Shown one piece after another: positions 462 through 57,685 of a DNA stretch of 64,000 nucleotides (within the stretch, counting starts at the first letter, position 1; each line of letters opens with the position of its first letter). The notes beneath the pieces were generated by a model that saw only the letters and a list, made by a program, of their open reading frames with translations, had not been told where the DNA came from and did no database searches. The position numbers and the translations under genes are program-made. Source of the stretch: a bacterium (GTDB lineage Bacteria > SAR324 > JACQKK01); NCBI GenBank assembly GCA_965240465.1, contig OZ251219.1, positions 736,001 to 800,000 on the forward strand, in the 5' to 3' direction.

Positions 462-2324
462 TTAGCGTGCCAAGAATTTTTTACAGTTTTCAGGCGGTTG
501 ATTTTCATTTTTCATGTACTGGAAGACGATTTCTCTTAGGGTAAAGGGCAGTTGATATTGGATGGGCGGATTTTGGAGCAGAGCTCGGGTAGCTATGGTG
601 TTATGCCCTTGTCGGATGAAGTCAGTGCTCCAGACGAGGTATTTTTTACGCCAGCGGAGAGGGATTTGCGGGGTTTGCGGGGTTTGTGAGTTTTGGATGA
701 GGAGGGATTTAATGTCGCTGGTTTTGGATTTAGGTTTTTGTTGAAAGGTGAAGCCTCCTGGGTAGAGTGGAGTGAGTCCTCGGGGGCTGTAGTTATTTTT
801 CCATCGTACCATTCCAGTGAGTAGGATGGCGATTTGCTTACCTTGGGCGTGGAATTGTACTATTTGGTTGGGGTAGTAGAGCCAGCGATAGATGTGTTTT
901 CTAAGGACAGGGGTGTGTTGCTTTGGGTGGGTTTTCCATTGCTGAGCGTAGAGGATTTTAGGCAGGGGCAGCAGACTAAGTAGTGGAGCAGGAGCAGCTA
1001 TTGAGTTCAGTTGGAGGTAGTTTTTCAGGGCTTGATGCTGGAGATTACCCAGACAACGAGTAAAAGGTCGGCGTTGGCGTTTTAGGAGTTTCGGGATGAC
1101 GAAGTGCCAATCGGTAGGAGTGTTTAGACTATGTTGAGCTGCTAGGAAGCGTTTTTTGGCATAGTTCGGCAGTTGGGTTTGCTGTGGAGTAAGGGAGGGC
1201 AATAGAATTGCGGCGGCGGATATTTTAGGCGGAGTGCTGGGCGGAGTGCTGGGAGGAGTGCGTTGATTGGAGGGATTGTCGGGGTGAGATTTTAGTTTAA
1301 TACGAACGAGCATTAGTCCTCGCCCGCTGGAGCCTACTTCCAGCAGTGGAATGGGCTGAGCGGGTATTTGCCAGCGTAGTTGTTGGTAAGGAAGGGGAGC
1401 ATAAGATAGACGATGAGAACCGCCACTGAGTACGAGGTCGGGATGAGCCTCGGGAGGGAGTTTCCATTTCCAAGCGACCAAGCTGGCAGCAGCAGGCAGG
1501 GGTTGATTTTCAGTAGCAGCGCGTTCCCAGCCGTAAAAGGGGTCGGCACCGCTGTGCATAAGAGCAATGACCAGATTCACCTTTTCCACTTTCCTTAGGT
1601 GAGGCACCCAACGACGCAATCCCGCCCGAATGCTACCCATCCGCCAAGGACCTCGCCACTCGGCTGCCGAAGCTCTAAGTCCGGGCTGTCCAAAACCAAG
1701 CACTCCCACCGAGATATTACCTCTTTTAACAATCACATAAGGAGTAAATACAGGTTCTCCTTGAGGGTTCAGGGCATTGGCTGCCAGCCAAGCAAAATCG
1801 GAGGCAGAATGTGATTTTTCCAGATGTTTGGCATTCAAGTCATAGTTGCCTATCGCCATGGCATCCCAGCCGATTTGGTTCATCAGCTGGATTGCGGGCA
1901 AGTTGCCATACTTATCTGCGGGTGGTTTTTCTCGCAGAGATTCTTGTGGTAGCACGCTGGAAGATGAACCAAATAAGCTGTCCCCAGCATCTAGTAAGAT
2001 CAAGCGATGATGGCTCTGGTTCTGTATCTTTGCCAGCAAGCTTTGTAAAGGTATCCAGCCTCGCTGATGAGAATAAGTATCGGTGAGCAAGCCATTATAA
2101 TCGGCAGTGACCGCCAGCCATAAGCTTTCCTCATCGGGAGCAGCAGTACTCACCAGTTCTTTCTCAGCCGAGCCAAGCTGAGTAAATTGAAGATACCAAA
2201 CCAAACAGAACACAATAGCTACTGAGGCCATCAATAATAACAGGACTTTCCAGCCTAGTGAACTGGATAGCTGGGTAGCAATTTTCCTTGCCTGCTGGTT
2301 AGCACCTCTCATGTTGAGGGGCAT
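462..2324 (-). CDS. 5'-nucleotidase/UshA-like calcineurin-fold metallophosphoesterase with N-terminal membrane anchor (degenerate metal ligands)
   Basis: Motifs TADYNG, DAGDSLFGS, GWDAMAIGNYD, WLAAN, LMHSG, LSGGSH; hydrophobic segment near N-terminus. Confidence 0.75.
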   Translation of the reverse strand: MPLNMRGANQQARKIATQLSSSLGWKVLLLLMASVAIVFCLVWYLQFTQLGSAEKELVSTAAPDEESLWLAVTADYNGLLTDTYSHQRGWIPLQSLLAKIQNQSHHRLILLDAGDSLFGSSSSVLPQESLREKPPADKYGNLPAIQLMNQIGWDAMAIGNYDLNAKHLEKSHSASDFAWLAANALNPQGEPVFTPYVIVKRGNISVGVLGFGQPGLRASAAEWRGPWRMGSIRAGLRRWVPHLRKVEKVNLVIALMHSGADPFYGWERAATENQPLPAAASLVAWKWKLPPEAHPDLVLSGGSHRLSYAPLPYQQLRWQIPAQPIPLLEVGSSGRGLMLVRIKLKSHPDNPSNQRTPPSTPPSTPPKISAAAILLPSLTPQQTQLPNYAKKRFLAAQHSLNTPTDWHFVIPKLLKRQRRPFTRCLGNLQHQALKNYLQLNSIAAPAPLLSLLPLPKILYAQQWKTHPKQHTPVLRKHIYRWLYYPNQIVQFHAQGKQIAILLTGMVRWKNNYSPRGLTPLYPGGFTFQQKPKSKTSDIKSLLIQNSQTPQTPQIPLRWRKKYLVWSTDFIRQGHNTIATRALLQNPPIQYQLPFTLREIVFQYMKNENQPPENCKKFLAR

Positions 2325-2917
2325 CTTTTTTTCAGGGTTTGAGCCAACTGAGCTAACTGAACCGATTGAGCCTCGGAGCTGCTTTGAGTGCTTATTTTTC
2401 CTAAGAGTCGGGTTGCCATAGCTGGTTTCATGTTTTGTAAAATCTGCCCTAGTGATTCCAAGCCCAGACTAAGGGATGGTGGTTTGAGACGCTTTTTTAG
2501 GCTGCGATTGACATCTTTTAGTACCAGAGGAGATACGTGTTCCAGCGAAGCCATTCTCAGGGCTAGCTCTTGTTGTAGGGAACTAGGCATGGCTTGCAGC
2601 ACCGCGGCTGCCTGAGAGCGAGGGCGTATTTGCATTAGAACTAAGGTAGCTGCTTGAGGGTGCTCGGTACTGAGTAGCTGGGCGGTTACTGCGGCTGATA
2701 AATGATTTAAGGTTACGATTCCTCCTAGTTGGCTGAGCCGTTGCTGATAAAAATCACTCAGTACTTGGTTCACTTCAGCCCAGCTGGCATCGGCAGCCTG
2801 CTTAATGGAGCCTGCTACCTGATCTACTTGCTGAGGTTGCATGCGTGCCAACACTTGCTTAGCCCTTCTGTGACCCAGCGATAACAACAAAATAGCAGAT
2901 TTTCGTACTACTGACAT
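2309..2917 (-). CDS. FliG-like protein (N and middle domains only)
   Basis: RKSAILLLSLG, EHPQ motif, ELALRMASLEHVSP; likely start ATG 2917 rather than 2980. Confidence 0.75.
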   Translation of the reverse strand: MSVVRKSAILLLSLGHRRAKQVLARMQPQQVDQVAGSIKQAADASWAEVNQVLSDFYQQRLSQLGGIVTLNHLSAAVTAQLLSTEHPQAATLVLMQIRPRSQAAAVLQAMPSSLQQELALRMASLEHVSPLVLKDVNRSLKKRLKPPSLSLGLESLGQILQNMKPAMATRLLGKISTQSSSEAQSVQLAQLAQTLKKRCPST

Positions 2918-3106
2918 TATATCCCCAAGAAAACACCCCCATAACCCGCTTAAAGGCTTCTTATTAGGAGGTGCATGCAAAAATCGGGTCTTTTTATTTG
3001 CTCCTTAGTATCAAAAGGGGTTATCTTTGTGGTGGAGTGACTGGAGCATTACTCGGTATTACTCAGTGGTTGCTGGATACTCAAAGGATGGAGTTGTAAG
3101 GGAACG

Positions 3107-4849
3107 ATGGCATTAAATCTAAAACTTCAGCTGCGACAAAATCAGCAGTTGATCATGACCCCTCAGTTACAACAAGCGATTCGCTTGTTGCAGTTATCGC
3201 GTTTGGAATTGGAGTCATTGGTAAATCAGGCTTTGGTGGAGAATCCGGTTTTGGAGGAGGATGAAAACAGAGGCGAAGATATGGAGTCATCAGGCTTAGA
3301 TCAAGGGGAGGAGGGGGGTGAAGCGGGTAGTAGCCTAGATAGTACTGCAGATGGTGTTGCAGATGGTACTGCGGATGGTGTTGAAGATGGTACTGCGGAT
3401 GGTGTTGAAGATGGTACTGCGGATGGTGTTGAAGATGGTACTGCGGAGAATAACGTGGATGATGGCGGGGATTTGATTAGGAACGAGCAGCATGAGGAGA
3501 CTGACCGTGACTGGCAAGAGTACATAGAGAGTGGTTCGGGAGTTATTCCAGAGCGTTCAGCAGGCAAGAGCGGTGAGGAGCCTCAGTTGGAAGCGATTTT
3601 ATCTAGGGATGAGTCTTTACGGGAGCATTTGCTGTGGCAGTTAAAGATGACTTCTTGGAGTGATGCCGAACGGAAGTTAGGTAGGCAGTTGGTAGGCAAT
3701 TTGGATGAGGATGGCTATTTGGTTGTGAGTTTGGGGGAGATATTGGAGACCAATATAGCCTTGGCTGGTGAGTTTGAGGAAGAACTTAAGCAAGAGCGTT
3801 TAACCTTATCTCAGGATGGTTTAGATTTGGAGTTATTGTGGGTGAAGCATGATTCCAAGCCCGCGGGCAAGGAAGGAAATCTTAGAATTAAGCCAGCGGT
3901 TGCTTTGGCTGCTGAAGCCGTTTTGCAGCAGGTGCATCAGTGGGATCCAGTTGGTTGCGGCACTCGTAATTTGCAGGAGTGCTTAGTGGCACAGCTAAAA
4001 TCCATGGGACTGGCAACTCATCCAGCCATACATATCATACACAAAGACCTAAAACTGCTGGAACGCCGCGACCTAAATAAAATAAGCTCCCGACACAAAC
4101 TGAGCCTCGCAGATACCATCGCCGCTTGGCAATTAATAACCTCCCTGGAACCTAAACCAGGCCGCCCCTTCACCGAAAGCCGAGCGGTGAACATCATCCC
4201 CGATGTCTACCTGTTCAAAGTGAACAACCCTGTCAATGCTAGTGATGTCATCGGCAATTATAGGATCTCCCTCAATGAAAATGGCATCCCGCGTCTACGT
4301 ATCAGCGAGTATTATCGCCTGCTGTACGAAAAATCCAACGATAGTAATTCCTTGACCAACCAATATCTGCAAGAAAAAATCAAAGCTGGACAATGGCTCA
4401 TGCGTAGTATTGAACAACGACAAAAAACCATCCTTAAGGTTTCTCAAAGCATCGTTAAACACCAATATGAATTCTTTGAAAACGGCATTGATAATCTAAA
4501 ACCCCTGGTACTAAAAGATATTGCAGAAGACATCGGAGTACACGAATCAACCGTCAGTCGGATAACCACCAACAAGTACATGCACACCCCGCAAGGACTA
4601 TTTGAACTAAAGTACTTCTTCACCAGCGGAGTAGGACAAGAAGATGGAGAAATAATCTCCTCTAAAAAAATCAAGGACATGATCCTCAAACTGGTTAACA
4701 AGGAAAATCACCGCAAACCTTATACCGATATCCAAATCGCCGATATCTTGAACCAAGAATTTAAAATCAAGGTTGCTCGCCGCACGGTCGCCAAATATCG
4801 TGAAGCCCTAAATGTGCTACCTTCTAATTGCAGAAAAAAATTGTTTTAA
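3107..4849 (+). CDS. rpoN: RNA polymerase sigma-54 factor
   Basis: N-terminal MTPQLQQAIRLLQLS, HESTVSR helix-turn-helix, RpoN box ARRTVAKYRE. Confidence 0.98.
   Translation: MALNLKLQLRQNQQLIMTPQLQQAIRLLQLSRLELESLVNQALVENPVLEEDENRGEDMESSGLDQGEEGGEAGSSLDSTADGVADGTADGVEDGTADGVEDGTADGVEDGTAENNVDDGGDLIRNEQHEETDRDWQEYIESGSGVIPERSAGKSGEEPQLEAILSRDESLREHLLWQLKMTSWSDAERKLGRQLVGNLDEDGYLVVSLGEILETNIALAGEFEEELKQERLTLSQDGLDLELLWVKHDSKPAGKEGNLRIKPAVALAAEAVLQQVHQWDPVGCGTRNLQECLVAQLKSMGLATHPAIHIIHKDLKLLERRDLNKISSRHKLSLADTIAAWQLITSLEPKPGRPFTESRAVNIIPDVYLFKVNNPVNASDVIGNYRISLNENGIPRLRISEYYRLLYEKSNDSNSLTNQYLQEKIKAGQWLMRSIEQRQKTILKVSQSIVKHQYEFFENGIDNLKPLVLKDIAEDIGVHESTVSRITTNKYMHTPQGLFELKYFFTSGVGQEDGEIISSKKIKDMILKLVNKENHRKPYTDIQIADILNQEFKIKVARRTVAKYREALNVLPSNCRKKLF
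3338..3447 (+). repeat. In-frame 24-bp tandem repeat (about 4.5 copies, TADGVEDG) in RpoN acidic region II
   Basis: GTACTGCGGATGGTGTTGAAGATG repeated. Confidence 0.95.
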
Positions 4850-4864: not shown

Positions 4865-4897
4865 TCACCAGCCGATCACCAGCCTATCACCAGCCTA
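4865..4897 (+). repeat. 11-bp tandem repeat x3 ending on the sthA start codon
   Basis: TCACCAGCC(G/T)A x3 then TG. Confidence 0.85.
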
Positions 4898-6279
4898 TGA
4901 AATCATACGACCTGATCGCAATTGGTTCAGGACCCGCCGGCGAAAGAGCAGCTATGCAAGCGAGAAAATTGGCACGCTCGGTGTTGGTGATAGAAGAAGA
5001 TTTTACCCCTGGGGGAAGTTGTACTCATCGGGGTACTATTCCCAGCAAAACCCTGCGGGAATCGGTTAAGTATCTCCAACTTCTCTGGGATCGTTCGCTA
5101 TACGGGATGTCTCTTAATATGAAGGAGCCTCTTACCATCAACCGCCTTATGCATCGCAAGAATGCTGCGGTAGCCTCTTTGGTGGAGCGACAACAAAACA
5201 ACATGCGACGCAATGAGGTGGATTATCTGCGCGGCCAAGCCTGCTTTAAAGATGAACATACCATCGCGGTTAAACTGCCCGATGGTAGTCAGGATATTGT
5301 ACGGGGTAAATGTGTTGTGATCGCCAGTGGTAGCCGACCCTTGCATCCTAAGAGAGTTGATTTCCAGCATCCTCGCATTTGCGACAGCGATAGCGTTCTA
5401 GAAATGCAACAGATTCCTAAAACCCTCACCATTTTTGGGGCTGGAGTGATTGGTTGTGAATACGCCTCCATTTTTTCGGCTATGGATGTAAAGGTGAATT
5501 TGGTCAATCCTCGGCAGGATCTGCTGGATTTTCTAGATTCAGAAATTTCTAGAACCTTGTCTTATTTAATGAGAGAATCGGGAATTCATTTGTACTTTGG
5601 GGAAGCCCTCAAAGAAGTCACCGCAGATGATGAAAAAGTACAACTAATCACCAAAACAGGCAAAACCATCAAAAGCGATTATCTGCTGATGGCTAGCGGA
5701 CGCACTGGCAATACCGAAAAACTAGGGCTGGATAAATTATCCATTGCAGTGAATAGCCGACAACAAATAATGGTCAATGAGTGCTTTCAAACCAGCGTTC
5801 CTCATATTTATGCGGTCGGGGATGTGATTGGATTTCCTGCTCTGGCGGCTACGGCTATGGATCAGGGTCGCTTTGCGGCTCTGCATGCTTTTGAGGACTC
5901 CCTAGAACCACCGAATACTAGCCTTATGCCAGCTGGTATTTATACCATTCCTGAGATTGCTACCGTGGGTGCCAGCGAAGAAGAATTATCAAAAAAGAGT
6001 GTCCCCTATCAAGTGGGAGTAGCTAACTACCGTGAAATTGCCAAATGCCAAATCTCAGGACACACCGTCGGAAAACTAAAACTGATCTTCCACCACGAAA
6101 CTTACAAATTACTGGGAGTACACATTATAGGAGAATGTGCTACCGACCTCATTCACATAGGACAGGCAGTGATGGTTTTTGGAGGTTCCATCCAATACTT
6201 TTTGGATCATACCTTCAATTATCCCACCCTCAGCGAATGTTATCGGGTAGCCACCTTTAATGGACTCAATCGTCTTTAG
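4897..6279 (+). CDS. sthA: Soluble (Si-specific) pyridine nucleotide transhydrogenase
   Basis: IGSGPAGE FAD motif, GGSCTHRGTIPSKTLRE (single Cys), GAGVIGCEYAS, C-terminal FNYPTLSECYRVATFNGLNRL. Confidence 0.95.
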   Translation: MKSYDLIAIGSGPAGERAAMQARKLARSVLVIEEDFTPGGSCTHRGTIPSKTLRESVKYLQLLWDRSLYGMSLNMKEPLTINRLMHRKNAAVASLVERQQNNMRRNEVDYLRGQACFKDEHTIAVKLPDGSQDIVRGKCVVIASGSRPLHPKRVDFQHPRICDSDSVLEMQQIPKTLTIFGAGVIGCEYASIFSAMDVKVNLVNPRQDLLDFLDSEISRTLSYLMRESGIHLYFGEALKEVTADDEKVQLITKTGKTIKSDYLLMASGRTGNTEKLGLDKLSIAVNSRQQIMVNECFQTSVPHIYAVGDVIGFPALAATAMDQGRFAALHAFEDSLEPPNTSLMPAGIYTIPEIATVGASEEELSKKSVPYQVGVANYREIAKCQISGHTVGKLKLIFHHETYKLLGVHIIGECATDLIHIGQAVMVFGGSIQYFLDHTFNYPTLSECYRVATFNGLNRL

Positions 6280-7093: not shown

Positions 7094-7831
7094 TTATTTT
7101 TTAACGATTCCAGAGTTGTACTCAACTAGCAACTCCCAATTTATTTTTCCATCATCACAAAATTTAGAAATAAATCCTGTTAACAAATTATTTCTTATTC
7201 TTTCATAAGCCTTGTTAAATTCCTCATTCTGTTCTGTTGCTTTATATCCTAAGGGTTCTATAAACCTAGTATATAAAATGGTTTCTCCCGATATAAATTT
7301 CCAAAATTCCTGTCCGCAATATTTCAAATACGATCCTTTATCTGGTTTATTATCCTTACCATAGCAACATCCATTTATAGCAATAATATTATCGGACATA
7401 TTCCCACTACTCCTTAAAATAATCTTAGCTTTATCAAAATTTTCCTTCATCTTTTTTATCTGACTACTGTTCCCCCAATTAGGCCCCGATTTTATAGATA
7501 CTAGATAATTAACATTATCTTTAAAGAATTCTAAATCTATCCCTTCTGCACTTGATTTTTTGCCATTATAAACTTTGCTGTTTATAAAAATAGCTAATCC
7601 TTCAAGAAGATTTCCAAAAATAGTTTCTTCTTGTGAAGATAAATGGGCATCAAGTATAAATTTTACCAAATCATCTGCTAGCAAAATATTTTTACATCTA
7701 AATAGGTATGGATTTTTTCGTTTCAGTAACTTCTCTATTTTTAAAGATTGTAATTTTTTAAGCCGAGCATAATGGAATGGTACTCCTATATTTTTCTCAA
7801 TATATTCTATTATCTCATTATCCGTAATCAT
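7094..7831 (-). CDS. Type II restriction endonuclease, PmeII-like family
   Basis: KRKNPYLF, SSQEETIFGNLLE, GIDLE...SIKSGPNWGNS PD-(D/E)xK-type core; overlaps the MTase stop codon; AT-rich. Confidence 0.8.
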   Translation of the reverse strand: MITDNEIIEYIEKNIGVPFHYARLKKLQSLKIEKLLKRKNPYLFRCKNILLADDLVKFILDAHLSSQEETIFGNLLEGLAIFINSKVYNGKKSSAEGIDLEFFKDNVNYLVSIKSGPNWGNSSQIKKMKENFDKAKIILRSSGNMSDNIIAINGCCYGKDNKPDKGSYLKYCGQEFWKFISGETILYTRFIEPLGYKATEQNEEFNKAYERIRNNLLTGFISKFCDDGKINWELLVEYNSGIVKK

Positions 7832-8658
7832 TGAATTCCCAATCTATTATACATTAAGTCTATATATTCAGAATTAGTATCAATACCTATAGAGTACCGA
7901 TCTAATTTATTTGCAGCAATTAATGTTGTTCCACTACCTGCAAATGGATCAAGGACTACATCTCCGACCTCAGTGAATAGTTTTATAAACCATGTAGGTA
8001 AACTTTCTGGAAAAGTCGCACTATGTTGTTTGTTATTACATTCTGTTGATAACTTTAAAACATTAGTTGGATATACTGTGTCTTTGGAGACCCAATTAGA
8101 TATATTTTTCCCAAAACCACTACCAACTTTTGATACATCTCTAATCATATCTGTTTCGCTCAAATTTTTAAGTCTTTGTTTAGACCAACTACCAATAGGT
8201 ACTTTTACATTATCTTGAAACATTTTAAATTTTTTCTGCTTTGTAAAATGCAACAATCGCTCCCAAGAATCTCTAAATCTGTTTGGCCATTTTCCAGGGT
8301 AACAATTTTTTTTATGCCAGATATATTCTTCTGTCCATAACCACCCCTGTTTTCTCATTTCCAGTATTAATTCTAACACATAAGTATGCCGTTCTCCATT
8401 AATTGCTCTTTCTTTGATGTTTAGGATAAAAGACCCTTCTGGATTTAGCACTCTTTTAAATTCATTTGCACGTGGTAAAAACCAATCTACATAACAATCT
8501 GCGGATATACCGCCGTATGTTTTTTTTCGTTGATCTGCATATGGTGGGGATGTAATTATTAAATCTACATAATCATTTTCATACTCTTTTAGTATATTAA
8601 GGCAGTCTCCTTGTTGTATTTTAGGGTTCTTAGCTTCTTTTAAGATACAACTATTCAT
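7828..8658 (-). CDS. Beta-class N4-C/N6-A DNA methyltransferase (cognate MTase)
   Basis: TSPPY before DPFAGSGTT; coupled to the REase. Confidence 0.93.
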   Translation of the reverse strand: MNSCILKEAKNPKIQQGDCLNILKEYENDYVDLIITSPPYADQRKKTYGGISADCYVDWFLPRANEFKRVLNPEGSFILNIKERAINGERHTYVLELILEMRKQGWLWTEEYIWHKKNCYPGKWPNRFRDSWERLLHFTKQKKFKMFQDNVKVPIGSWSKQRLKNLSETDMIRDVSKVGSGFGKNISNWVSKDTVYPTNVLKLSTECNNKQHSATFPESLPTWFIKLFTEVGDVVLDPFAGSGTTLIAANKLDRYSIGIDTNSEYIDLMYNRLGIQ

Positions 8659-12020: not shown

Positions 12021-12126
12021 GACGGATATGGCATCAGGCGATGCAATCACATTTGGCGATGCAATCACATTTGGCGATGCAATCACATTTGGCGATGCAA
12101 TCACATCAGACGGATATGGCATCAGG
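12021..12126. repeat. 18-bp tandem repeat x4 bracketed by a different 18-bp direct repeat
   Basis: GGCGATGCAATCACATTT x3 plus variant; GACGGATATGGCATCAGG at 12021-12038 and 12109-12126. Confidence 0.93.
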
Positions 12127-13724: not shown

Positions 13725-13838
13725 TGTCGTATCAAGGTATTGTCATACCAAGGTATTGTCATACCAAGGTATTGTCATACCAAGGTATTGTCATACCGAG
13801 ATATTGTCATACCAAGGTATTATACCAAGATATTGTCA
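13725..13838 (-). repeat. 16-bp tandem repeat (about 7 copies) derived from the last codons of panC
   Basis: Minus strand: TGACAATA(T/C)CTTGGTA repeated past the TAA. Confidence 0.93.
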
Positions 13839-42031: not shown

Positions 42032-42159
42032 CGCTGGTAGAAGAATGCATAAAAGCTCAGCTGGCTATCAGCAGAGACTACCAGATATAAGACAAATATT
42101 CACCGATCAGGGCAATCATAGTTGACAGTCTCGGAGGTAATATGTGAGAGTGCGTCTGG

Positions 42160-43943: not shown

Positions 43944-43972
43944 TTTGAGGTCTTAGTGGAGGGGGGGGGGGT

Positions 43973-44165: not shown

Positions 44166-45044
44166 TTAGCCGAAGCGTCCAGTGATGTAGTTTTCGGTGC
44201 TAAGACACTTTGGTTGGGTGAACAGGTTTCGGGTTTTGTTGTACTCTAGCAATTTACCCAGATAAAGAAAAGCAGTGTAGTCCGATACCCGTGCGGCTTG
44301 CTGCATGTTATGGGTGACGATGATGACAGTATAGTCCTTTTTAAGTTGACTAATCAATTCTTCAATGCGGGCGGTAGCAATGGGGTCTAGAGCCGAGCAG
44401 GGTTCATCCATGAGGATTATTTCTGGGTTGATGGCGATGGCTCGGGCGATACAGAGTCTTTGCATTTGACCTCCTGAGAGTCCCAGTGCTGATTCGTGCA
44501 ATCTGGTTTTCACTTCATCCCAGAGGGCAGCCGCCCGCAGGCTTTTTTCGGCTTTTTCTTCTAAGGTTTGGCGATCATTTATTCCCGCAATGCGGAGGCC
44601 GTAAATAGTATTTTCATAGATGGACTTAGAAAAGGGATTTGATTGCTGAAAGACCATCCCTACCTTTTGTCGGAGGGCGATAACATCCAGTTCGGCTTGG
44701 TTGATATCTTGATTGTCTAGTAGGATACGTCCTTGGGTGTGGACGCTTTCCACTAGGTCGTTCATGCGATTTAAGGCTCGTAGCAGGGTGGATTTTCCAC
44801 AGCCTGAGGGTCCAATGAAAGCGGTGACCCTACCTTTGGGGATATCCATGTTGAGGTCGGAAATGGCAGGCTGCGGGCCATACGATATAGACAGGTCTTC
44901 AATTTTTAGCAGGGGTTTGGAGATCTGAATACAGAAATGTTTCGGTCTTTTGCTGTTATGGGTGGGGCTACCCGAGGACAGACTAGCAGCTGGGTACTTG
45001 GGTAGCTTAACAGCATGAGTAGGAGTTTTTTCTTCCATGGACAA
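44166..45044 (-). CDS. pstB: Phosphate ABC transporter ATP-binding protein
   Basis: [38 protein letters not shown]. Confidence 0.98.
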
Positions 45045-45120
45045 TTAAGATTAGGCGATTAGGAGATTAGGCGATTAAGATTAGGAGATTAAGATTAGGA
45101 GATTAGGCGATTAAGATTGA
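45045..45120. repeat. Mosaic 6-8 bp repeat directly upstream of the pstB start
   Basis: ATTAAG, ATTAGGCG and ATTAGGAG units. Confidence 0.85.
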
Positions 45121-45247
45121 GCAATTAAATTGGTATGCAAACAATGAATAATAGCAAGAGATTAAAAAATAGGAGGGACAAATAGAAAAAAGGGGTACTG
45201 ATCATCTGAGCAAAAACTGCCAAAAGCCTATCAGGTACTACAGCAAG

Positions 45248-46873: not shown

Positions 46874-49180
46874 TTAATGACGAGAAAATTTATAACGCAA
46901 ACGGGAACGCACCAATTCGGCTAAGGAGTTAATGATAAAGGTAGCCATAAACAACAGGGTAGCCGTTAGAAACAGGGTACGGTACAAGGTGCTATCTCGG
47001 GGTGCTTCGGGGACTTCCACCGCAATGTTGGCAGAGATGGTACGCATGCCAGTAAAAATGCTAGCATCAATAATGGGAGTATTCCCCGCCGCCATTAAGA
47101 CAATCATGGTCTCACCTACTGCTCGTCCTAGCCCCAGCATCAAAGCCGCAAAGATGCCCGCACTGGCAGCAGGTAAGATCACTCGCCACAGGGTCTGCCA
47201 GCGAGAAGCCCCCAAGGCTAAGGAAGCCGCCGTCAAGCGACGAGGTACATTGCTTAAGGCATCCTCAGAAATGCTGAAAATGCTGGGAACAACTGCAAAA
47301 CCTAAGGCAATGGCAATCACAATGGCATTGCGTTGATCGTAGTAAATATCCCAGCGCTGAAACAACCATTCAGTCAGAGGACCCTTAAGCCAAAATTTGT
47401 CTAGCAGACTGCCCAGCCAACCAGCCAAGAAAATACTCACCACTACTAGGGGTACGACTGCTAAAAATTCTCTGCTGCGGAAAAACTTCAGCCAACCCCA
47501 AGAATACGAAAACTTGTTCACCAAAGCCATTAACACTAAAATAACTACTGGTAACAAACCCAGACCAAGCAATATACTGCTGAGGCTAGTTTCCACTAAG
47601 GGTGCAAGCCAAAAGGCAGCCAAAAAACCTAAAATCACCGTTGGTACAGCATCCATCAGTTCAAAAATGGGTTTGACAATGTTTCGTAGCCGAGTTTCCA
47701 TCATTTGGCTGGCGTACATGGCACTAAACACACCCAAGGGGGCTGCAAATAGCATTCCGTAAAAAGTAGCTTTCAAGGTACCAAACACTAAGGGTATTAA
47801 GCTCAGCTTGGGTTCGGTATCTTCTGCAGTGGAGGACTGCCAGATATACTCTGGCTTTTGGTATCCCTCATAAAAAATCCGACCAAAAAAAGCTCTCAGC
47901 CCTCCTTCAGGATGGGAAGCATCCAGCTCCCAAATGCTGGCTCTCCCCTGATAATCAAGAGCAAAAATACTCTGATCCCGCAAATCTAGAGCTGCCATAG
48001 CTAAGATATCTCCAGCTTCTTTAGGACCAGACAAAGGCAAATCTGCCAAAACACGACCACTAGTATTATGACTAAAAGCCACCGTGCCATCATCTGCCAA
48101 GCTGAGCAAACTCTTAGAGCGTGAAGCAGTCACAATTTGTTGCACTGGAGCCTCGTGTGCCTGCCAAGTACGCAGAGCCGTCAATTCTGGTGTAATTGAG
48201 GACTCGCCAGAGGGAGTGGTAAAAACGGGCACTTTTATAACTAGCCAGCTACTGATGCGTCCATTTGCATGCCCTGCCAAGAGGGTATCATCACCCAGTA
48301 GCAAACTGAGGGCAGTTATCGTAGCCAGTCCACTTTGTTGACTGATGACCGCTAAAGGACCTGGGGGAGTGTCTTCATCAGCATGCCAGTAAAACAGCCG
48401 ATCCCCATAAGCCGCATAGGCATTACGCCCATCGGCACTGAGAGCCAACAAGGGAGGCTCGGTATTCTCGCCTGTATTCGTCGCGGATAAGATCCAGTCT
48501 TGATGGATGTTCTCTCCATCTCCAAACAAGCCTTCAGTTTTTCGCCAGTGTTCCAGCAGCAAGCGTCCATCGGGGAGCAGGCTAAGACGGCTATCAGATT
48601 GAGGGTTTTGTCGGAGAATTGCGTTCAGGGGCAGTCCTGAGCTAGCAGGTGAAATGGTAGATAAATTGGCAGGTGCTGATTGCTGACTAAGAATCTCCCA
48701 GTGAGGTACAATGGTGCGTTGTTGATCCTCATCAAACTGGGGCTTGACCCCGATGATTACTAAGCTGCTGGCAGCGTTTTTCCAGAACAAGCTGTAGCGA
48801 CCGTGACCGAGCGAGTGAACGTGCTTTAATTGCGAGCCTTTTCCGATGGTATTCAGGTTGTATTGGGCTTGGATTTCGCCTGAGTTTAGCTCAAAGAATT
48901 GCAGTTGGCTTTTCTGGTTGATGGTGAATCCGAGCTGTTTATATTCTCCGATCCCCAAGAGCAGTATTTTATCCTTTTTTAACGCCTGTTCCAGTGGGAG
49001 TTGCTGTACTAGCTTCAGTCTGGCGGGTGAGAACAAAGGCAAGGCTACCGTGGCTATCAAAGCCAACATGCCTAGCACGCAGACGATGACCCCAACCCCA
49101 CCCGCAGTTACTATTCCAGTTGCCAGTTTATCTAGGTACTTGGCGCGGTATTTTCGGTTGATTTTTTTACTAGCTAACAA
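46874..49180 (-). CDS. pstC: Phosphate ABC transporter permease PstC (long form with beta-propeller-like insert)
   Basis: PLVFGTLKAT, KPIFELM.AVPTV, YDQRN, GRAVGETMIVLM. Confidence 0.93.
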   Translation of the reverse strand: MLASKKINRKYRAKYLDKLATGIVTAGGVGVIVCVLGMLALIATVALPLFSPARLKLVQQLPLEQALKKDKILLLGIGEYKQLGFTINQKSQLQFFELNSGEIQAQYNLNTIGKGSQLKHVHSLGHGRYSLFWKNAASSLVIIGVKPQFDEDQQRTIVPHWEILSQQSAPANLSTISPASSGLPLNAILRQNPQSDSRLSLLPDGRLLLEHWRKTEGLFGDGENIHQDWILSATNTGENTEPPLLALSADGRNAYAAYGDRLFYWHADEDTPPGPLAVISQQSGLATITALSLLLGDDTLLAGHANGRISSWLVIKVPVFTTPSGESSITPELTALRTWQAHEAPVQQIVTASRSKSLLSLADDGTVAFSHNTSGRVLADLPLSGPKEAGDILAMAALDLRDQSIFALDYQGRASIWELDASHPEGGLRAFFGRIFYEGYQKPEYIWQSSTAEDTEPKLSLIPLVFGTLKATFYGMLFAAPLGVFSAMYASQMMETRLRNIVKPIFELMDAVPTVILGFLAAFWLAPLVETSLSSILLGLGLLPVVILVLMALVNKFSYSWGWLKFFRSREFLAVVPLVVVSIFLAGWLGSLLDKFWLKGPLTEWLFQRWDIYYDQRNAIVIAIALGFAVVPSIFSISEDALSNVPRRLTAASLALGASRWQTLWRVILPAASAGIFAALMLGLGRAVGETMIVLMAAGNTPIIDASIFTGMRTISANIAVEVPEAPRDSTLYRTLFLTATLLFMATFIINSLAELVRSRLRYKFSRH

Positions 49181-49304: not shown

Positions 49305-50330
49305 TTACAGTCCTAATTTTTTTCTTATTTTACGGGCTTCTTTATAAGGCAAGGGGAAGTAGCCATCTTTTATCACCACTTGTTGACCCTCTTTGGATAA
49401 AACCAAGTCCAAGAAATTCTTCGTTAGGGAGTCCAAGGGTTTTTTGGGCTGTTTAGCCACATAGATATACAGCAGTCTGGATAAAGGATAATTGCCATTT
49501 AAGGCAGCTTGGGGAGTAGGAGCATAAAAGCGGCCTTTTCTCTTGCCTAAAGGGACTATTCTCACGTCTGCAGTGCTGTAGCCGAAGCCACTATAACCTA
49601 TTCCAGCTACATCCCCAGCTACGCCACCGACCACCGCAGAAGATCCAGGTTGCTCCTTTACTACCGAGCGATAATCACCCCTAAACAAGGCTACCTTCTT
49701 GAAATAGTCATAAGTCCCCGAGGCAGAATTACGACCATAAAGACTAATTGCTCGCTTGGTTAAGCTCCCCTTCACTCCGACTTGCCCCCAAGTGACAATT
49801 CTCTTGGGACTACCTCCTTTGCGAGTACTGGAAAACATTGCATCCAGCTGAACTAAACTCAATCCCTGGATGGGGTTGCTTCGGTGAACATAAATCGCTA
49901 AGGCATCTACCGCGACTGGCACTTGAGTCGGCTTGTATCCATGCTTATTCTCAAAAGACTCCAGCTCTTTCAGCTTCATTGCCCGAGACATCGGACCTAG
50001 CCTAGTAACGCCCTCAGTCAGGGCGGGTGGAGCCGTGCCAGAACCCTTGCCCTCTATCTGAACATTCACATTGGGATAGTAAGAACGAAATCGCTCCGCC
50101 CACAAGGTCATTAGATTATTGAGCGTGTCGGAACCAATGCTGTTCAAATTACCGCTCACCCCAGCCTGATGCCGATATGCAGGATAGGCTTTATCCACCT
50201 TAGTCTGTGCCTGCGATGCCGATGCTGATGACAACCCCATAAATGCTACCCCCATAAATGCCACCCCTAATACCAGAAAAGCCCTAACACGAACTAGGAG
50301 CCTAATTCTGGAATCAACTAGATCTGCCAT
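49305..50330 (-). CDS. pstS: Phosphate-binding periplasmic protein
   Basis: [34 protein letters not shown]; in-frame GVAFM duplication in signal peptide. Confidence 0.96.
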
Positions 50331-51190: not shown

Positions 51191-51958
51191 TCAAGACGCG
51201 TTCCAGCAGATGCTAAATATCCAAGGGTGCTGCTGGAACAAGAGCCCAGTGCCAGTTACTAGCTCGGGGAGGCTACCTTGGGCTTGCCAGCGGATTTTTT
51301 GCCAGTGTTTATCGGGGGGGGACTTGGTGAGTTGAATGTTGATGTCTGGGAATTTAATCCAGGTTTGCCAGCGAGGATAAAGGGCTTTGAAGATGCTCTC
51401 CTTGGCAGAAAAATATCCTAGTAGATCTGGTAGCTGATATTCAGCCGCAGGGGGAGGAGTAGTGTCGGCAGGAGTAGTATCGGCAGGAGTAGTGTCGGCG
51501 GGGGGGGTGTGTGTGTCAGGGGTAGTCTTTAGGTGGTGGGATTCGGTAGGGGATAGGATTCGGCGTGCCAAGCGGTCGGCATCCAAGCTGGGCCTGTGAT
51601 GCTCTAAATCAACTCCGAAGGGCGAGCATTGTTTCTGCAAACCGACCACTGCTACCGCCCAACCACCAGCATGGCTGATGCTCCCTCTGACTCCCTCGGG
51701 CCAAATAGGCAAGCCTCGTTCACTGCGTCCGATGGGGTCTGGTTTTCGGTGAGGAGATAATTGGCTCAGGGCTTGATAGGCTGCTTCTCGCCCGAGTAGG
51801 AAATCTTTACGCCTTTGGGGGTGGGCTTTGGCAGGTAGAAGCAGGTCGTGAGGGAGGGGGTCGGGGATATTATAATCTGGTGAGAGCAGTACCAGTTGCA
51901 GACCCTTGGGCATTAAAGGATGCTTCAAATTTAGCAGGCGGGGCTGCAAAGCGGTCAT
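51191..51958 (-). CDS. 4'-phosphopantetheinyl transferase (EntD/Sfp-like)
   Basis: R..DFLLGR, PIWP.G.RGSISH, GVDLE, FSAKESIFKA; in-frame PADTT repeat. Confidence 0.92.
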   Translation of the reverse strand: MTALQPRLLNLKHPLMPKGLQLVLLSPDYNIPDPLPHDLLLPAKAHPQRRKDFLLGREAAYQALSQLSPHRKPDPIGRSERGLPIWPEGVRGSISHAGGWAVAVVGLQKQCSPFGVDLEHHRPSLDADRLARRILSPTESHHLKTTPDTHTPPADTTPADTTPADTTPPPAAEYQLPDLLGYFSAKESIFKALYPRWQTWIKFPDINIQLTKSPPDKHWQKIRWQAQGSLPELVTGTGLLFQQHPWIFSICWNAS

Positions 51959-52597: not shown

Positions 52598-52649
52598 TGA
52601 TCGCCACGCTAGGCTGGGTTTTTTATAGGGGGGTATTTTTTACGAGAAG

Positions 52650-52776
52650 CTTTGGACGGACTGCTCTTGCGGACAGCTTGGACGGGAATTTTTTACGAAC
52701 CGCTTGGACGGACAGCTTGGACGGACAGCTTGGACGGACAGCTTGGATAGACAGCTTGGATAGACAGCTTGGATAG
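52650..52776. repeat. 13-bp tandem repeat array upstream of scpB
   Basis: CTTGGACGGACAG and CTTGGATAGACAG units. Confidence 0.9.
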
Positions 52777-52823
52777 GGAATCTCCACAGGAATTTTTCTA
52801 CGGGAAGTTTCTAGCAAGAAGCT

Positions 52824-52879
52824 TTTTATTGGGGGCCTTTTATTGGGGGATTCTTATTGGGGGATTCTTATTGGGGATT
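52824..52879. repeat. About 14-bp repeat x4 starting at the lipA stop codon
   Basis: TTCTTATTGGGGGA variants. Confidence 0.82.
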
Positions 52880-55092: not shown

Positions 55093-55177
55093 TTCGTGTT
55101 TATCGTGCAAAGTTTATCGTGCAAAGTTTATTGCGCGAGGGCAGTCTATCTTTGGTGTGTATAGGATGTGAGAATGG

Positions 55178-55232
55178 TCATGAGCTGGGGTCATGAGCTG
55201 GGGTCATGAGCTGGAGTCATGAGCTGGAGTCA
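55178..55232 (-). repeat. 13-bp repeat x4 copying the msrB 3' end and stop codon
   Basis: Minus strand C(T/C)CCAGCTCATGA x4; adjacent 14-bp GTTTATCGTGCAAA repeat after tRNA-Thr. Confidence 0.93.
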
Positions 55233-55678
55233 AGTTTCAGGGAGGCAGAATTGATGCAATATCGTTTTCCGCTGGGGGGCGGTCCGTCAGGAAAGACGTG
55301 TCCTAAATGGGCATCACAGCGGGCACAGCAGACTTCAGTTCGCGCCATCGGTCCTGGTCCATCGCTTTTGGTGGTTAGATGATCAGGGTGGCTGGGTTCC
55401 CAAAAACTAGGCCAGCCTGTGCTGGAATCGTATTTCTTTTGAGAGCGAAATAAAGACAACCCGCAACAGATGCACTGATAATCCCCCGATTTTTTTTCCT
55501 TCCAATAAGCTCCAGTAAAAGGTCTTTCAGTACCGGCTTCTCTGGTGATGTGGTACTGTTCTTTTGTCAATTGCTGACGCCATTCTGGCTCTGTTTTTTT
55601 GACTTTAGACAATGAAGCAGGCATGTCTTTTGGATCAGACATGTTTTTTGGAGCAGGCATGTTTTTTGGAGCAGGCAT
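55217..55678 (-). CDS. msrB: Methionine-R-sulfoxide reductase
   Basis: GTERPF, CxxC, GWPSF, HLGHVF.DGP, RYCINS; N-terminal 18-bp repeat (MPAPKN). Confidence 0.98.
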   Translation of the reverse strand: MPAPKNMPAPKNMSDPKDMPASLSKVKKTEPEWRQQLTKEQYHITREAGTERPFTGAYWKEKKSGDYQCICCGLSLFRSQKKYDSSTGWPSFWEPSHPDHLTTKSDGPGPMARTEVCCARCDAHLGHVFPDGPPPSGKRYCINSASLKLDSSS

Positions 55679-55735
55679 GAAGATTCTCTTAAAAATACGG
55701 TGAATATAAAATAAGAACCAGCGGAATCATCAGAA

Positions 55736-55915: not shown

Positions 55916-56938
55916 ATGTCCTTTATCAACCCGATGCGTTTATTGGCTGTAGTAGGTCCCACCGCTAGTGGCAAGAGTCAATTGGCAGCCAGCTTGGCAG
56001 CCGACTTAAATGCAGAAGTGGTCGGCGCGGATGCGGTACAATGCTATCGTCAGGCTAAGATCGGGGCCGCTCAGCCCTCTGATGCAACTAGAGCTCGGGT
56101 GGTGCATCATTTGGTGGGTTTCTTGCCCTCGGGGACACCTTACTCGGCTGGTAAATATGCCGAACAGGCTCGGGAATTGATTATCAATCTATGCAGCAAA
56201 GGAAAAACAGTGGTCTTGTGCGGGGGATCGGGCTTATATCTGGATGCCCTACTGCGAGGGTTTTCTCCTCTGCCGAGCATACCAGCGGTTATTCGTAGTC
56301 GGGTGAGTGCAACACTTCAGCCCCTTAGCAATCAAGAGTGCCACGCACTGCTGCAAAGCAAAGACCCCGTCATAGCTCGGGTAACTAACCCTGCCGACCG
56401 TCAAAGAATAGCCCGAGCACTAGAAGTAGTCCTAGCTAGTGGAACCCCCTTAAGTGAATACCAAACCCAACCCAAAATACCTCTGCCAGCCACAATCCTA
56501 GCATTCGGCATCAGCTGGCAACGAGCAGAACTATACCAACGAATCGCCAAACGAACTCACTCCATGCTGGCAAATGGACTCCTAAAGGAAACCCGAGAAA
56601 TACTCAATAGCGGTTGCTGCCCCAGTAGTCCGCCCCTGAACGCAGTAGGATACCAACAGGCACTCAGCTGCATCAAAGGAGAACTAAACCACACCGAACT
56701 CCCAAATCTCATCATTAAGCGCACCCGTCAACTCGCCAAACGACAACTCACCTGGCTCAGACATCACGGCTTTGGAGATCCTGAAAAACCCGCTCTCTAT
56801 CAAGACCAACAGCTATCTCTATCCACTCATTGGCTACCTCCTCCACCATTTCTTGCTCCTCCACCCCAGACCCCAAAAAATAACCACTCCCTGCCCGAAA
56901 ATATTATCTCCCTAGCTCGGAAATTCTTAAAGGGCTGA
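55916..56938 (+). CDS. miaA: tRNA dimethylallyltransferase
   Basis: GPTASGKS, HHL, GGSGLY, RALEV, AVGY, AKRQLTW; stop region CTTAAAGGGCTGAT duplicated (56926-56953). Confidence 0.95.
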   Translation: MSFINPMRLLAVVGPTASGKSQLAASLAADLNAEVVGADAVQCYRQAKIGAAQPSDATRARVVHHLVGFLPSGTPYSAGKYAEQARELIINLCSKGKTVVLCGGSGLYLDALLRGFSPLPSIPAVIRSRVSATLQPLSNQECHALLQSKDPVIARVTNPADRQRIARALEVVLASGTPLSEYQTQPKIPLPATILAFGISWQRAELYQRIAKRTHSMLANGLLKETREILNSGCCPSSPPLNAVGYQQALSCIKGELNHTELPNLIIKRTRQLAKRQLTWLRHHGFGDPEKPALYQDQQLSLSTHWLPPPPFLAPPPQTPKNNHSLPENIISLARKFLKG

Positions 56939-57026
56939 TCTTAAAGGGCTGATGGCACCAGCAATCGCTATTCAGGCTTATCTCTATAAGCAGACTTAGC
57001 TAAAAGTTGCCGTCTGGAGTAGATTA

Positions 57027-57076: not shown

Positions 57077-57565
57077 ATGTTTCTACTCGATAACCTTGCC
57101 ATGAACAAGAATTCCTACCAAGATCCTCCCCAATCCTCGGCTGAACCCGCACCAACAACCGAAACCGTCGCTCACCCGAACGTGCAAACGATCGGTATTC
57201 AAAACTTCAGCATCTTTAGCACCTCTCAGCAACAGGGCCTGTGGAGACTCCATTTCATTTGGGGCAAAAAGGATTTTTGCCTCTTCTTGCAGCCCCAAGA
57301 AAGTGTGCGTCAAAGCAATAGCTTGGCGGTACTCGGTAACAATGATAAATTGCTCCTCACAGTCACCAGATTACAATACCTGCGTGGATTCCAGTGGTAT
57401 GACTACCACAAAGTAAGTCTCCATAACCTAGCCTATGAAGAAATTTGCTGGAAGCTGGAAGGATTAAAACACTATGTTGAACTACCCAAAGATTTCTTGG
57501 ATATGGCTATAGAACTGGCTTGTCGGGCATTTGATCTGCGTCGCATCAGTACTGATACCTCTTGA
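57077..57565 (+). CDS. Hypothetical protein
   Basis: 162-aa ORF filling the gap; no family recognised. Confidence 0.6.
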   Translation: MFLLDNLAMNKNSYQDPPQSSAEPAPTTETVAHPNVQTIGIQNFSIFSTSQQQGLWRLHFIWGKKDFCLFLQPQESVRQSNSLAVLGNNDKLLLTVTRLQYLRGFQWYDYHKVSLHNLAYEEICWKLEGLKHYVELPKDFLDMAIELACRAFDLRRISTDTS

Positions 57566-57591
57566 CTTCTTGCCTCCTCGGGTGCTATCTT
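57562..57591 (+). promoter_or_regulatory. Putative sigma-70 promoter repeated in front of each lipoprotein-array unit (also 60863-60892, 63768-63796, 63925-63953)
   Basis: TTGACT-17/18 bp-TATCTT (TACGGT, TATCTC variants). Confidence 0.6.
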
Positions 57592-57685
57592 GGGGGCTGG
57601 TACTTTCATGCATTCTAACTAGGGTTGCCCAAAACTAGGGTTGCCCAAAACGTAGGACTGCCCAAGTCCTGCAACAGGATTACCC

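Follow-up and report, generated by a model that had tools for sequence, protein, structure and literature searches.

Dense short tandem arrays, each with its own unit, in and between the core genes of a 64-kb stretch of a bacterial chromosome of the SAR324 lineage

Pervasive short tandem repeats whose unit changes from one locus to the next are known from Borgs, the extrachromosomal elements of Methanoperedens, and from giant viruses (Nucleocytoviricota). For Borgs, five rows of Table 1 of Schoelmerich et al. (2023, PMC9879509) give 50–76 repeat regions per 0.66–1.09 Mb, i.e., 0.053–0.092 regions per kb or 0.58–1.02% of the genome, and the portions of that paper on unit length put units that are a multiple of three nucleotides (3n) at 14–38% of those between genes. 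In giant viruses, the repeat section of PMC12660748 describes the repeats as pervasive and novel in each region, and those within genes as almost always 3n. Such repeats are described in the relevant passages of both papers as virtually absent from the Borg host archaeon and several-fold rarer in bacteria, the second source giving a frequency ~3 to 5 times lower in some bacterial genomes. A survey of 119 bacterial and 142 archaeal reference genomes tied short-unit arrays to replication anomalies, and its main text reports maxima of 23 per Mb for bacteria (Burkholderia pseudomallei chromosome II) and 89 per Mb for archaea (Methanosarcina vacuolata) (Subirana and Messeguer 2019, PMC6749651). In this study, we analyzed the tandem arrays in 64,000 bp of a bacterial chromosome (contig OZ251219.1, positions 736,001–800,000; hereafter the window), which represents ~4% of a contig of 1,599,138 bp and in which such arrays occur, in and between core genes, at a density at or above that of Borgs.

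The presence of dense, short and mutually unrelated tandem repeats in the window was confirmed as a real observation. Tandem Repeats Finder (TRF) returned 60 rows with a score of at least 50 (the main set), which merged into 42 arrays with a total of 4244 bp. Among 20 dinucleotide-preserving shuffles used as the control, 16 had no array and four had a single array at that score, and with a relaxed score of at least 30 there were 70 arrays in the window versus 5–13 per shuffle. Three of the 42 arrays consist of long modules (87–294 bp) in two GLUG-repeat proteins (59672–60223, 61280–61863 and 62763–63249) and are ordinary protein-domain repeats, distinct from the short-unit arrays. The 39 short-unit arrays have units of 9–54 bp (mode 12–17 bp) in 2.0–10.4 copies, span positions 1228–57665 at about one per 1.5 kb, and have copies that match at 80–100%, with 11 of the 39 being perfect. 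Periods of 1–5 bp were absent from the TRF arrays of the window even at a score of 30, which makes the arrays minisatellite-like rather than microsatellites. The original prediction for this DNA, made by reading its letters without database searches, had counted about 30 arrays, which proved to be an undercount, and had begun the series at position 660; there is an array there, at 661–686, but it is weak (9 bp × 2.9, score 45) and falls below the main set. The unit sizes that it listed were recovered by TRF, namely 9, 12, 15, 18, 24 and 54 bp inside open reading frames (ORFs) and 10, 11, 12, 13, 14, 16, 17, 18, 24 and 52 bp between genes.

Comparison with other bacterial loci showed how unusual this density is. 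The comparators were 80 MreB-anchored loci (1.35 Mb) from a set of 185,579 species genomes, and they have 0.083 arrays per kb versus 0.656 per kb in the window; the highest value was 0.37 per kb, in a locus of 10.7 kb, and the 14 loci with an MreB identity of at least 66% have 0.099 per kb. The nearest MreB locus, L001 (OZ252237.1, 86% identical), is from a metagenome-assembled genome (MAG) with a chromosome of 1.72 Mb and a G+C content of 0.466, and no array was detected by TRF in its 21 kb, in which ~14 would be expected at the rate of the window. Orthologues of eight window genes were identified in L001 in two syntenic blocks, at 44–86% identity, and by these sequences L001 is a relative at about the family level, not a sister strain. 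The next MreB loci (71–78%) belong to MAGs labelled SAR324 cluster, Candidatus Lambdaproteobacteria, Deltaproteobacteria, Pseudomonadota or simply "bacterium", and a search with the window's IF-3, which is the sole member of its cluster, gave no relative of more than 74% identity. In 50 kb of Escherichia coli K-12 there were two arrays, both of them long protein-domain repeats. When the strict Borg criteria were applied (perfect, at least 50 nt, at least three units), the window had eight regions (0.125 per kb, 1.23% of its bases) and the 80 loci had one region in 1.35 Mb. A TRF proxy for "satellites" (at least four copies of a unit of 10–200 nt) gave 17 in the window, 15 of them with short units, or 266 per Mb versus 5.2 per Mb in the 80 loci. 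The claim that such a density is unusual for bacteria was therefore borne out, the maxima in the literature also being lower.

The arrays are strongly constrained by reading frame, as the original prediction had also stated. All 16 arrays inside ORFs have 3n units, compared to four of the 23 (17%) that are intergenic or overlap an ORF end (Fisher P = 1.5e-7). Five of the 16 are near N-termini (lpxA, pstS, ORF 50660, msrB and the tpiA leader) and are possibly in 5' leaders; if these are moved to a leader class, the numbers with 3n units become 11 of 11 versus 9 of 28, and the rule persists. The possibility that the rule is circular was rejected, as there are no gene halves parted by a non-3n array: comparison of the window ORFs with NCBIfam and Pfam identified no such array splitting one recognisable gene into two ORFs. 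The start of seven non-3n arrays is held by or adjoins the 3' end of an ORF (the panC, ferredoxin, relA/spoT-like, msrB, miaA, rsfS and MT-A70 genes), where the first unit carries the stop codon so that the protein is unchanged. Most of the gene names proposed earlier for array-bearing ORFs are confirmed by NCBIfam (5'-nucleotidase-like, rpoN, hemE, infC, tatB, lpxA, pstS, phosphopantetheinyl transferase and msrB), the label "SPOR-like" for ORF 42338–43132 being one for which no NCBIfam or Pfam family matched.

Position relative to genes is also far from uniform. Coding sequence represents 83.9% of the window (G+C 0.461), and arrays occupy 1.9% of coding bases versus 19.2% of the 8318 intergenic bases. 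Arrays with 3n units have a density of 0.30 per kb in coding sequence versus 0.48 per kb between genes, whereas the non-3n arrays number zero and 19, respectively. Of 46 gaps of at least 40 nt, 20 contain some array bases and 13 are covered to at least 40%, in agreement with the earlier remark that many gaps are largely filled by repeats. Counting a gap as array-bearing only if it has at least 10 array bases (19 of 46), arrays are present in one of 11 divergent gaps, five of six convergent gaps and 13 of 29 co-directional gaps (divergent versus the rest, P = 0.016; convergent versus divergent, P = 0.005). Arrays that shift the frame or disrupt promoters are purged, while insertions in frame are widely tolerated. 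That arrays shun divergent promoter gaps and fill convergent ones is one of two new features, the other being the strand bias of the units described below.

The individual arrays, including two with a score of 45, are as follows (unit length × copies, with the match between copies):

661–686: weak array, 9 bp × 2.9, score 45; inside the 5'-nucleotidase-like ORF 462–2324 (− strand)
1228–1261: 12 bp × 2.8, 95%; residues 355–366 of the 5'-nucleotidase-like ORF, past the matched metallophosphatase stretch
3224–3259: 18 bp × 2.0, 83%; rpoN residues 40–51
3337–3447: 24 bp × 4.6, 96%; rpoN residues 77–114, an acidic D/G/T/A repeat before the conserved C-terminal stretch 270–579
4865–4898: 11 bp × 3.1, 95%; rpoN–sthA gap, touching the sthA start codon
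10676–10753: 12 bp × 5.4, 90%; hemE residues 266–291, a 20-residue insertion versus the L001 orthologue
12037–12106: 18 bp × 3.9, perfect; intergenic, with a longer direct repeat flanking it
13725–13838: 16 bp × 7.3, 87%; from the last codons and stop of panC (− strand) into a convergent gap
15109–15142: 12 bp × 2.8, perfect; C-terminal tail of ORF 14746–15168, residues 122–133 of 140
18379–18412: 17 bp × 2.0, 88%; gap between ribE and a FecR-like ORF
20232–20283: 14 bp × 3.9, 80%; convergent gap, from the last 6 nt of the MT-A70 ORF
20398–20430: 12 bp × 2.8, score 45; infC C-terminal tail, next to the 54-bp array
20434–20686 (within 20398–20686): 54 bp × 4.6, 96%; infC C-terminal tail, residues 216–300
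22702–22800: 16 bp × 6.2, 97%; 93% of the queG–fdx gap, overlapping the fdx 3' end
24325–24521: 17 bp × 10.4 nested in 51 bp × 3.9; the entire convergent gap between hinT and an aminotransferase gene
26591–26624: 15 bp × 2.3, perfect; tatB C-terminal tail, residues 106–117 of 123
27550–27583: 14 bp × 2.4, perfect; holds the rsfS stop codon, in the convergent gap with mreB
29554–29590: 15 bp × 2.5, perfect; lpxA N-terminal extension, residues 29–41 (family match begins at residue 45)
36197–36280: 24 bp × 2.0 (perfect) and 17 bp × 2.0 (94%), adjacent; spacer between 16S and tRNA-Ile
36703–36777: 12 bp × 6.2, perfect; lies past tRNA-Ala and ahead of the conserved tpiA core (the family match in the long ORF 36599–37528 begins at residue 67), in what may be leader or N-terminal extension
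37580–37638: 12 bp × 4.9, 95%; tpiA–secG gap
39072–39191: 13 bp × 5.2 (26 bp × 2.8) and 14 bp × 3.0; the 14-bp array overlaps the 3' end of the short relA/spoT-like ORF
42157–42231: 10 bp × 7.5, 90%; gap between larE and tRNA-Gly, the sole divergent gap with an array
42680–42714: 12 bp × 2.9, 91%; ORF 42338–43132 residues 140–151
42897–42925: 9 bp × 3.2, perfect; ORF 42338–43132 residues 70–79
43967–44153: 52 bp × 3.6, perfect; 84% of the phoU–pstB gap in the pst operon
45044–45128: compound array with TRF rows of 6, 8, 14, 22 and 36 bp; pstB–pstA gap, touching the pstB start
46940–46979: 18 bp × 2.2, 81%; pstC residues 734–747, hydrophobic; the weakest member and the only one within a family-matched stretch
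50235–50267: 15 bp × 2.2, 94%; pstS residues 22–32, hydrophobic N-terminal segment
50741–50773: 12 bp × 2.8, 90%; ORF 50660–51157 residues 28–38, hydrophobic
51455–51499: 15 bp × 3.0, 93%; phosphopantetheinyl transferase residues 154–168, right after the matched stretch 33–148
52631–52876: 13 bp × 9.4 (52-bp higher order) and 14 bp × 3.6; jointly 69% of the scpB–lipA gap
55098–55232: 14 bp × 2.4 (perfect) and 13 bp × 4.4 (97%); convergent gap between tRNA-Thr and msrB, the 13-bp array overlapping the msrB 3' end
55616–55679: 18 bp × 3.6, 89%; msrB residues 1–21, the start-codon region being repeated in frame
56925–56953: 14 bp × 2.1, perfect; holds the miaA stop codon
57027–57075: 12 bp × 4.1, 97%; gap upstream of ORF 57077
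57617–57665: 16 bp × 3.0, 90%; gap upstream of the first GLUG-repeat protein

The 341 residues encoded by repeats are enriched in P, E, K and T and, relative to the host proteins, include more disorder-promoting residues (0.636 versus 0.519) and fewer order-promoting ones (0.191 versus 0.347), a composition that, with their position, suggests disorder. In three arrays the duplicated segment is hydrophobic, either N-terminal or in the membrane. Twelve arrays are in proteins with a family match; 11 of these fall beyond the best matched stretch or at its border, and only the weak pstC array (81%) falls within it. Two arrays, compared with relatives, provide direct evidence of an insertion. The hemE array adds a four-residue unit ~5 times, and when aligned with the L001 protein, which is otherwise 63% identical, it shows up as a clean gap of 20 residues. 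IF-3 has 314 amino acids (aa), with an 18-residue unit × 4.6 after its C-terminal domain in a repeat tail of ~110 residues, whereas its nearest homologue (74% identical) has 178 aa and is without the tail. Other lineages have low-complexity tails at the same site of IF-3, and comparable long unit repeats were seen in none of the nine homologues shown. At 22702–22800, the 16-bp unit read on the − strand, which is the queG strand, shows by eye from the printed array a Shine-Dalgarno-like motif, an ATG and a stop. The queG–fdx gap may thus hold ~6 tandem mini start sites, with a possible effect on the translation of queG.

The interpretation given in the original prediction is partly supported, and the likeness to Borgs that it had proposed stands for most of the features that could be measured. 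The density by strict criteria is at or above Borg values (0.125 per kb, 1.23%), all genic units are 3n compared to 17% of intergenic units, the units are unique to each locus, partial copies flank the arrays and some arrays begin in an ORF end. In addition, the peptide inserts are P/E/K/T-rich and, as judged from composition, may be of a disordered type, and the repeats are absent from the nearest relative. The likeness does not extend to A-richness, perfection or the carrier. Borg units are A-rich on the coding strand, whereas those of the window are G/T-rich on one DNA strand, and only 11 of the 39 window arrays are perfect. The A content of the + strand is 0.228 in arrays versus 0.258 in the window, and on the coding strand of arrays in ORFs it is 0.296, a figure for the arrays alone. 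The carrier is not a linear archaeal element, but a bacterial chromosome with a complete 16S ribosomal RNA (rRNA) gene at 34529–36049 (+ strand), six transfer RNA (tRNA) genes and core genes on both strands. Among the latter, NCBIfam identified rpoN, sthA, hemE, panC, DAHP synthase, ribE, infC, queG, an ISC-type ferredoxin, rpiA, tatB, rsfS and mreB, as well as lpxA, tpiA, secG, a relA/spoT-family gene, gmk, larE, phoU-pstBACS, scpB, lipA, msrB and miaA. The giant viruses resemble the window in having pervasive, region-novel repeats that are 3n in genes, and differ from it in being viral genomes.

Phase-variable contingency loci of host-adapted bacteria have units of 1–8 nt that shift frame or promoter spacing, and these loci cluster in surface genes. 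They share with the window slippage-prone repeats in and beside genes, but the window is without 1–5 bp periods, has frameshifts in none of its 16 genic arrays and arrays in only one of 11 divergent gaps, and its host genes are housekeeping genes. Replication-slippage minisatellites (variable number tandem repeats) are similar in their head-to-tail copies bounded by short direct repeats and in their nested, expanding periods. Other repeat-rich bacteria are less similar. Some of the bacterial genomes mentioned in PMC12660748 are, on that account, below the Borg level, in contrast to the window. Compared with the maxima given in the main text of the 2019 survey, the window has 266 arrays per Mb by the TRF proxy, although the two counts come from different detection programs and the window is a small sample of 64 kb; the Burkholderia arrays of that survey (PMC6749651) are there described as sequence families derived from microsatellites, unlike those of the window. 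Constant-size repeats of the Bacillus type (52 or 20–21 nt; Subirana and Messeguer 2021, PMC8161180) are, as presented in its main text, likewise non-coding arrays whose sequence differs by locus, but their unit size is fixed, whereas it ranges from 9 to 54 bp in the window, with a single primary 52-bp unit. The TAACTGA repeats of marine Beggiatoaceae, as outlined in PMC4679880, are also abundant intergenic direct repeats in an uncultured bacterium, but one heptamer recurs at many loci there and each window array has its own unit. A limited search of main texts turned up neither a bacterial chromosome nor any SAR324-related bacterium reported to have tandem repeats at Borg-level density; a repeat database preprint was set aside as irrelevant since it counts only repeats of at least 500 bp. 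Pervasive locus-unique arrays, the 3n rule and disorder-type inserts are thus already known from Borgs and giant viruses, as are other repeat-rich bacteria, and what is new here is the carrier, the G/T strand bias, the avoidance of promoter gaps and the mix of old and new arrays.

The strand bias of the units has not been described for Borgs. Mean unit GC skew on the + strand is +0.27, with 27 units positive, seven zero and five negative, versus 0.075 +/- 0.079 in a control matched by class (intergenic, + strand genes, − strand genes; P = 0.004). Unit skew is positive in all three classes (+0.23 for intergenic arrays, n = 23; +0.45 in + strand genes, n = 5; +0.28 in − strand genes, n = 11), so that the bias goes with the DNA strand rather than with the coding strand. 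The units are also G+T-rich on the + strand, whatever the orientation of the gene. Cumulative GC skew climbs over the whole window and the 16S gene is on the + strand, which is probably the leading strand, as judged from these 64 kb only. The original prediction had further suggested that the arrays might arise from the process that causes skew domains. The analysis gave no support for this link, since the skew of the units does not track that of the flanking 1.5 kb (Spearman rho 0.15, P = 0.36); the units instead have a uniform strand bias.

Analyses of the unit sequences and array ends point to how the arrays may have arisen. By comparison of their sequences, the units of different arrays are unrelated: a 9-mer is shared by two unit pairs (1.06 expected) and an 8-mer by seven (3.7 expected), and at the 7-mer level 31 pairs share on the same strand (12.7 expected) and 10 on the opposite strand (11.5 expected). 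A dispersed repeat family of the REP, MITE, STRR or TAACTGA type was rejected on this basis, with 8- and 9-mer sharing at chance and the 7-mer excess confined to the same strand and compositional. Start codons, stop codons and gene 3' ends lie within arrays, which together with the unrelated units indicates that the arrays are local in origin. Among 28 perfect runs (at least two copies and 28 nt, no mismatch), 20 finish in a partial copy of at least 3 nt (median 5 nt), a count that is approximate since several runs were cut out of arrays that are longer and imperfect; by our own estimate, chance would extend a run that far in ~6% of cases. Several arrays have nested periods (12/24, 13/26, 13/52, 17/51 and 8/14/22/36 bp). 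Partial-copy ends and nested periods are the footprint expected of slipped-strand mispairing between short direct repeats, followed by expansion. The slippage-prone synthesis suggested in the original prediction thus fits the ends of the arrays, although 20 of 28 runs with a partial copy do not prove it. The polarity of perfect copies within arrays was also considered and dropped, since no side was consistently favored by eye.

Several other features of the window are of note for the biology of this genome. In the region 34529–37528, the 16S rRNA, tRNA-Ile and tRNA-Ala genes are followed directly by tpiA and secG, and no match to 23S or 5S rRNA was found within the 64 kb; the rRNA genes seem to be unlinked. 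Two low-G+C restriction-modification islands (7094–8658 and 29700–33925; 5.8 kb) have 2-kb windows down to 0.31 and 0.38 G+C, the first with an EcoO109I-like endonuclease and an adenine methyltransferase and the second with a methyltransferase and an 847-aa type III res-like enzyme. The use of these foreign islands as a clock was abandoned: neither carries an array, but the coding rate predicts only ~1.8 in 5.8 kb, and the absence is not significant. At 19623–20237 there is an MT-A70 family methyltransferase ORF (204 aa) that stands alone, with no obvious restriction partner adjacent to it. PstA (45248–46864, 538 aa) and PstC (46874–49180, 768 aa) have N-terminal extensions of ~270 and ~530 residues before the permease domain, for which no family match was found. 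The neighboring GLUG-motif proteins (57686–60847, 1053 aa; 60891–63752, 953 aa), with internal DNA repeats of 87–96, 177 and 294 bp, are by their sequence probably repeat proteins of a surface or adhesin-like kind, and they have no relation to the short-unit arrays. Four ORFs are possible remnants: a FliG-like ORF with the N and M domains only (2309–2980), a second, partial DoxX ORF with no match in L001 (13292–13651), a prepilin-peptidase ORF with the N-terminal domain only (23312–23758), and a RelA/SpoT-family ORF of 366 aa with hydrolase and synthetase, but without the C-terminal regulatory part (39164–40264). Together with a contig of ~1.6 Mb, these remnants are hints of genome reduction.

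The reading of the arrays that we favor, with a probability of roughly 0.6, is that replication slippage at short direct repeats has a raised, lineage-specific rate, with selection filtering its products. The arrays would have formed recently and in place, along the entire chromosome of a single bacterial lineage. In the first step, the nascent strand would slip between direct repeats of 3–10 nt that are 9–54 nt apart, thereby duplicating the intervening sequence. A two-copy array would then slip more readily, leading to expansion and at times to higher-order duplication (17 to 51, 13 to 52 and 12 to 24 bp). The third step is the selection filter, whose effect is seen in the window: frame-shifting arrays were never found in genes. 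In-frame arrays persist in protein tails and linkers, in N-terminal extensions and in hydrophobic segments that resemble signals, and arrays of any period persist downstream of genes and in operon spacers, often with their seed in the closing codons and stop of a gene, while divergent promoter gaps stay nearly array-free. The G/T-rich units of the + strand suggest that the process is tied to the DNA strand, presumably through replication rather than transcription or coding. Copy matches of 80–100% and the 11 perfect arrays of 39 indicate an ongoing process in which the perfect arrays would be recent. The root cause would be a raised rate of formation, brought about by a change in the replisome or in the way that large slipped loops are handled. 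A weakening of removal by itself is less likely, given that L001, of similar chromosome size and G+C, has no arrays. Work of the Lovett laboratory on misalignment at repeats is said to place loops of 9–54 nt beyond the range of mismatch repair and reportedly found that in E. coli such loops are limited by single-strand exonucleases and the integrity of the replisome. By analogy, single-strand exonucleases and the replisome would be the first candidates.

Several considerations weigh against this reading. Slippage is known here from its footprints only, and any duplication with microhomology breakpoints would leave the same ends; in addition, with some perfect runs being pieces of longer imperfect arrays, the remainders are not clean. 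The data are from 64 kb of a ~1.6-Mb contig. L001 is distant (eight genes, 44–86%), so that "lineage-specific" means since that split only. Five related MAG loci (L003, L006, L008, L013 and L018) have 0.19–0.37 arrays per kb in a similar style, and a milder repeat tendency over the wider clade is possible. One of them, L013 (JBBCAX010000220.1, "Deltaproteobacteria bacterium TL4"), has at its contig end (1–1045) a compound repeat of ~700 bp with periods of 17, 28, 44, 61, 73, 90 and 163 bp and two further short arrays inward, and at 0.24 arrays per kb represents another repeat-prone genome of the wider clade. Comparator MAGs from short reads may also under-represent repeats. Finally, the 3n densities in coding and intergenic sequence would fit weak selection as well, and a raised rate and weaker selection are not separable on this evidence.

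The main rival is accordingly an ordinary slippage rate combined with weak purifying selection or drift, as in a population that is small, perhaps host-associated or slow to grow, and has a reduced genome. We consider it unlikely, though it has more in its favor than the explanations that follow. The small contig (~1.6 Mb) and the 1.72-Mb chromosome of the relative are consistent with it, as are the remnants (FliG with N and M only, the N-domain of a prepilin peptidase, a 366-aa RelA/SpoT and a second DoxX fragment), the 16S gene without a 23S gene after it, and in-frame genic arrays at ~60% of the density of 3n arrays between genes. However, L001 is of similar size and G+C and has zero arrays in 21 kb, the 11 of 39 perfect arrays point to high recent birth and turnover rather than slow accumulation, and selection is clearly effective against frameshifts (none in 16) and in promoter gaps (one in 11).

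Another explanation is that the arrays are maintained for their usefulness, as has been proposed for the repeats of Borgs. Under that explanation, which we regard as improbable, arrays would be kept as disordered linkers and tails in proteins and as regulatory RNAs, spacers or terminators between genes. The P/E/K/T-rich peptides and the arrays in tails and linkers would suit such roles, as would the enrichment of arrays downstream of genes, the in-frame repetition of the msrB start codon, and the 16-bp unit upstream of queG, which seems by eye to repeat a ribosome-binding-like motif and an ATG six times. Against this, there is no common unit sequence or size and nothing conserved in L001, placement at tolerant sites is expected from the selection filter alone, and it is not evident why a housekeeping enzyme such as HemE would need 20 extra residues.

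Slightly more doubtful is a dedicated repeat-writing enzyme encoded elsewhere in the genome, such as an unusual polymerase or primase, an integrase-like system or a retroelement. PolB9 and CRISPR-like integration are considered for Borg repeats in the discussion of their origin in PMC9879509, and the window equals in density the elements for which such ideas arose, with a strand bias that suggests a directional process. However, scans of the window ORFs (56 against NCBIfam and 22 against Pfam, in ~4% of the contig) returned no family of polymerases, reverse transcriptases or integrases, and plain slippage already gives partial-copy ends. An artefact of long-read metagenome assembly or polishing is very improbable: although the source is a single large contig seen once (IF-3 cluster of one member), an artefact would ignore reading frames (16 of 16 versus 4 of 23) and promoter gaps and would not yield diverged copies with point differences, as the original prediction had rightly argued from the 3n rule and the variant copies.

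A raised slippage rate, if it applies beyond the window, leads to a broader proposal that we put forward tentatively and hold to be somewhat less likely to be right than wrong. The whole ~1.6-Mb chromosome may make repeats in the style of Borgs and giant viruses at the highest density recorded for a cellular genome, through a heritable change in the replisome or in the loop-processing nucleases that act on slipped intermediates of 9–54 nt, with the G/T bias as a footprint of leading/lagging asymmetry. If so, the unexplained genesis of repeats in Borgs and giant viruses would have a cellular counterpart, and its cause could be found by comparing two small genomes, that of the window and the repeat-free OZ252237.1. 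The similar-sized, array-free relative offers a comparative route to the responsible replication or repair function. In addition, the presence of genes on both strands allows a bias of the DNA strand to be separated from one of the coding strand, which is not the case in Borgs with their one gene strand per replichore. The window also demonstrates the tolerance of core proteins for in-frame insertions, the intolerant sites of this compact genome being reading frames and promoter gaps. Borg-level arrays in rpoN, infC, hemE, lpxA and the pst operon of a bacterial chromosome show that the phenomenon extends beyond viruses and extrachromosomal elements.

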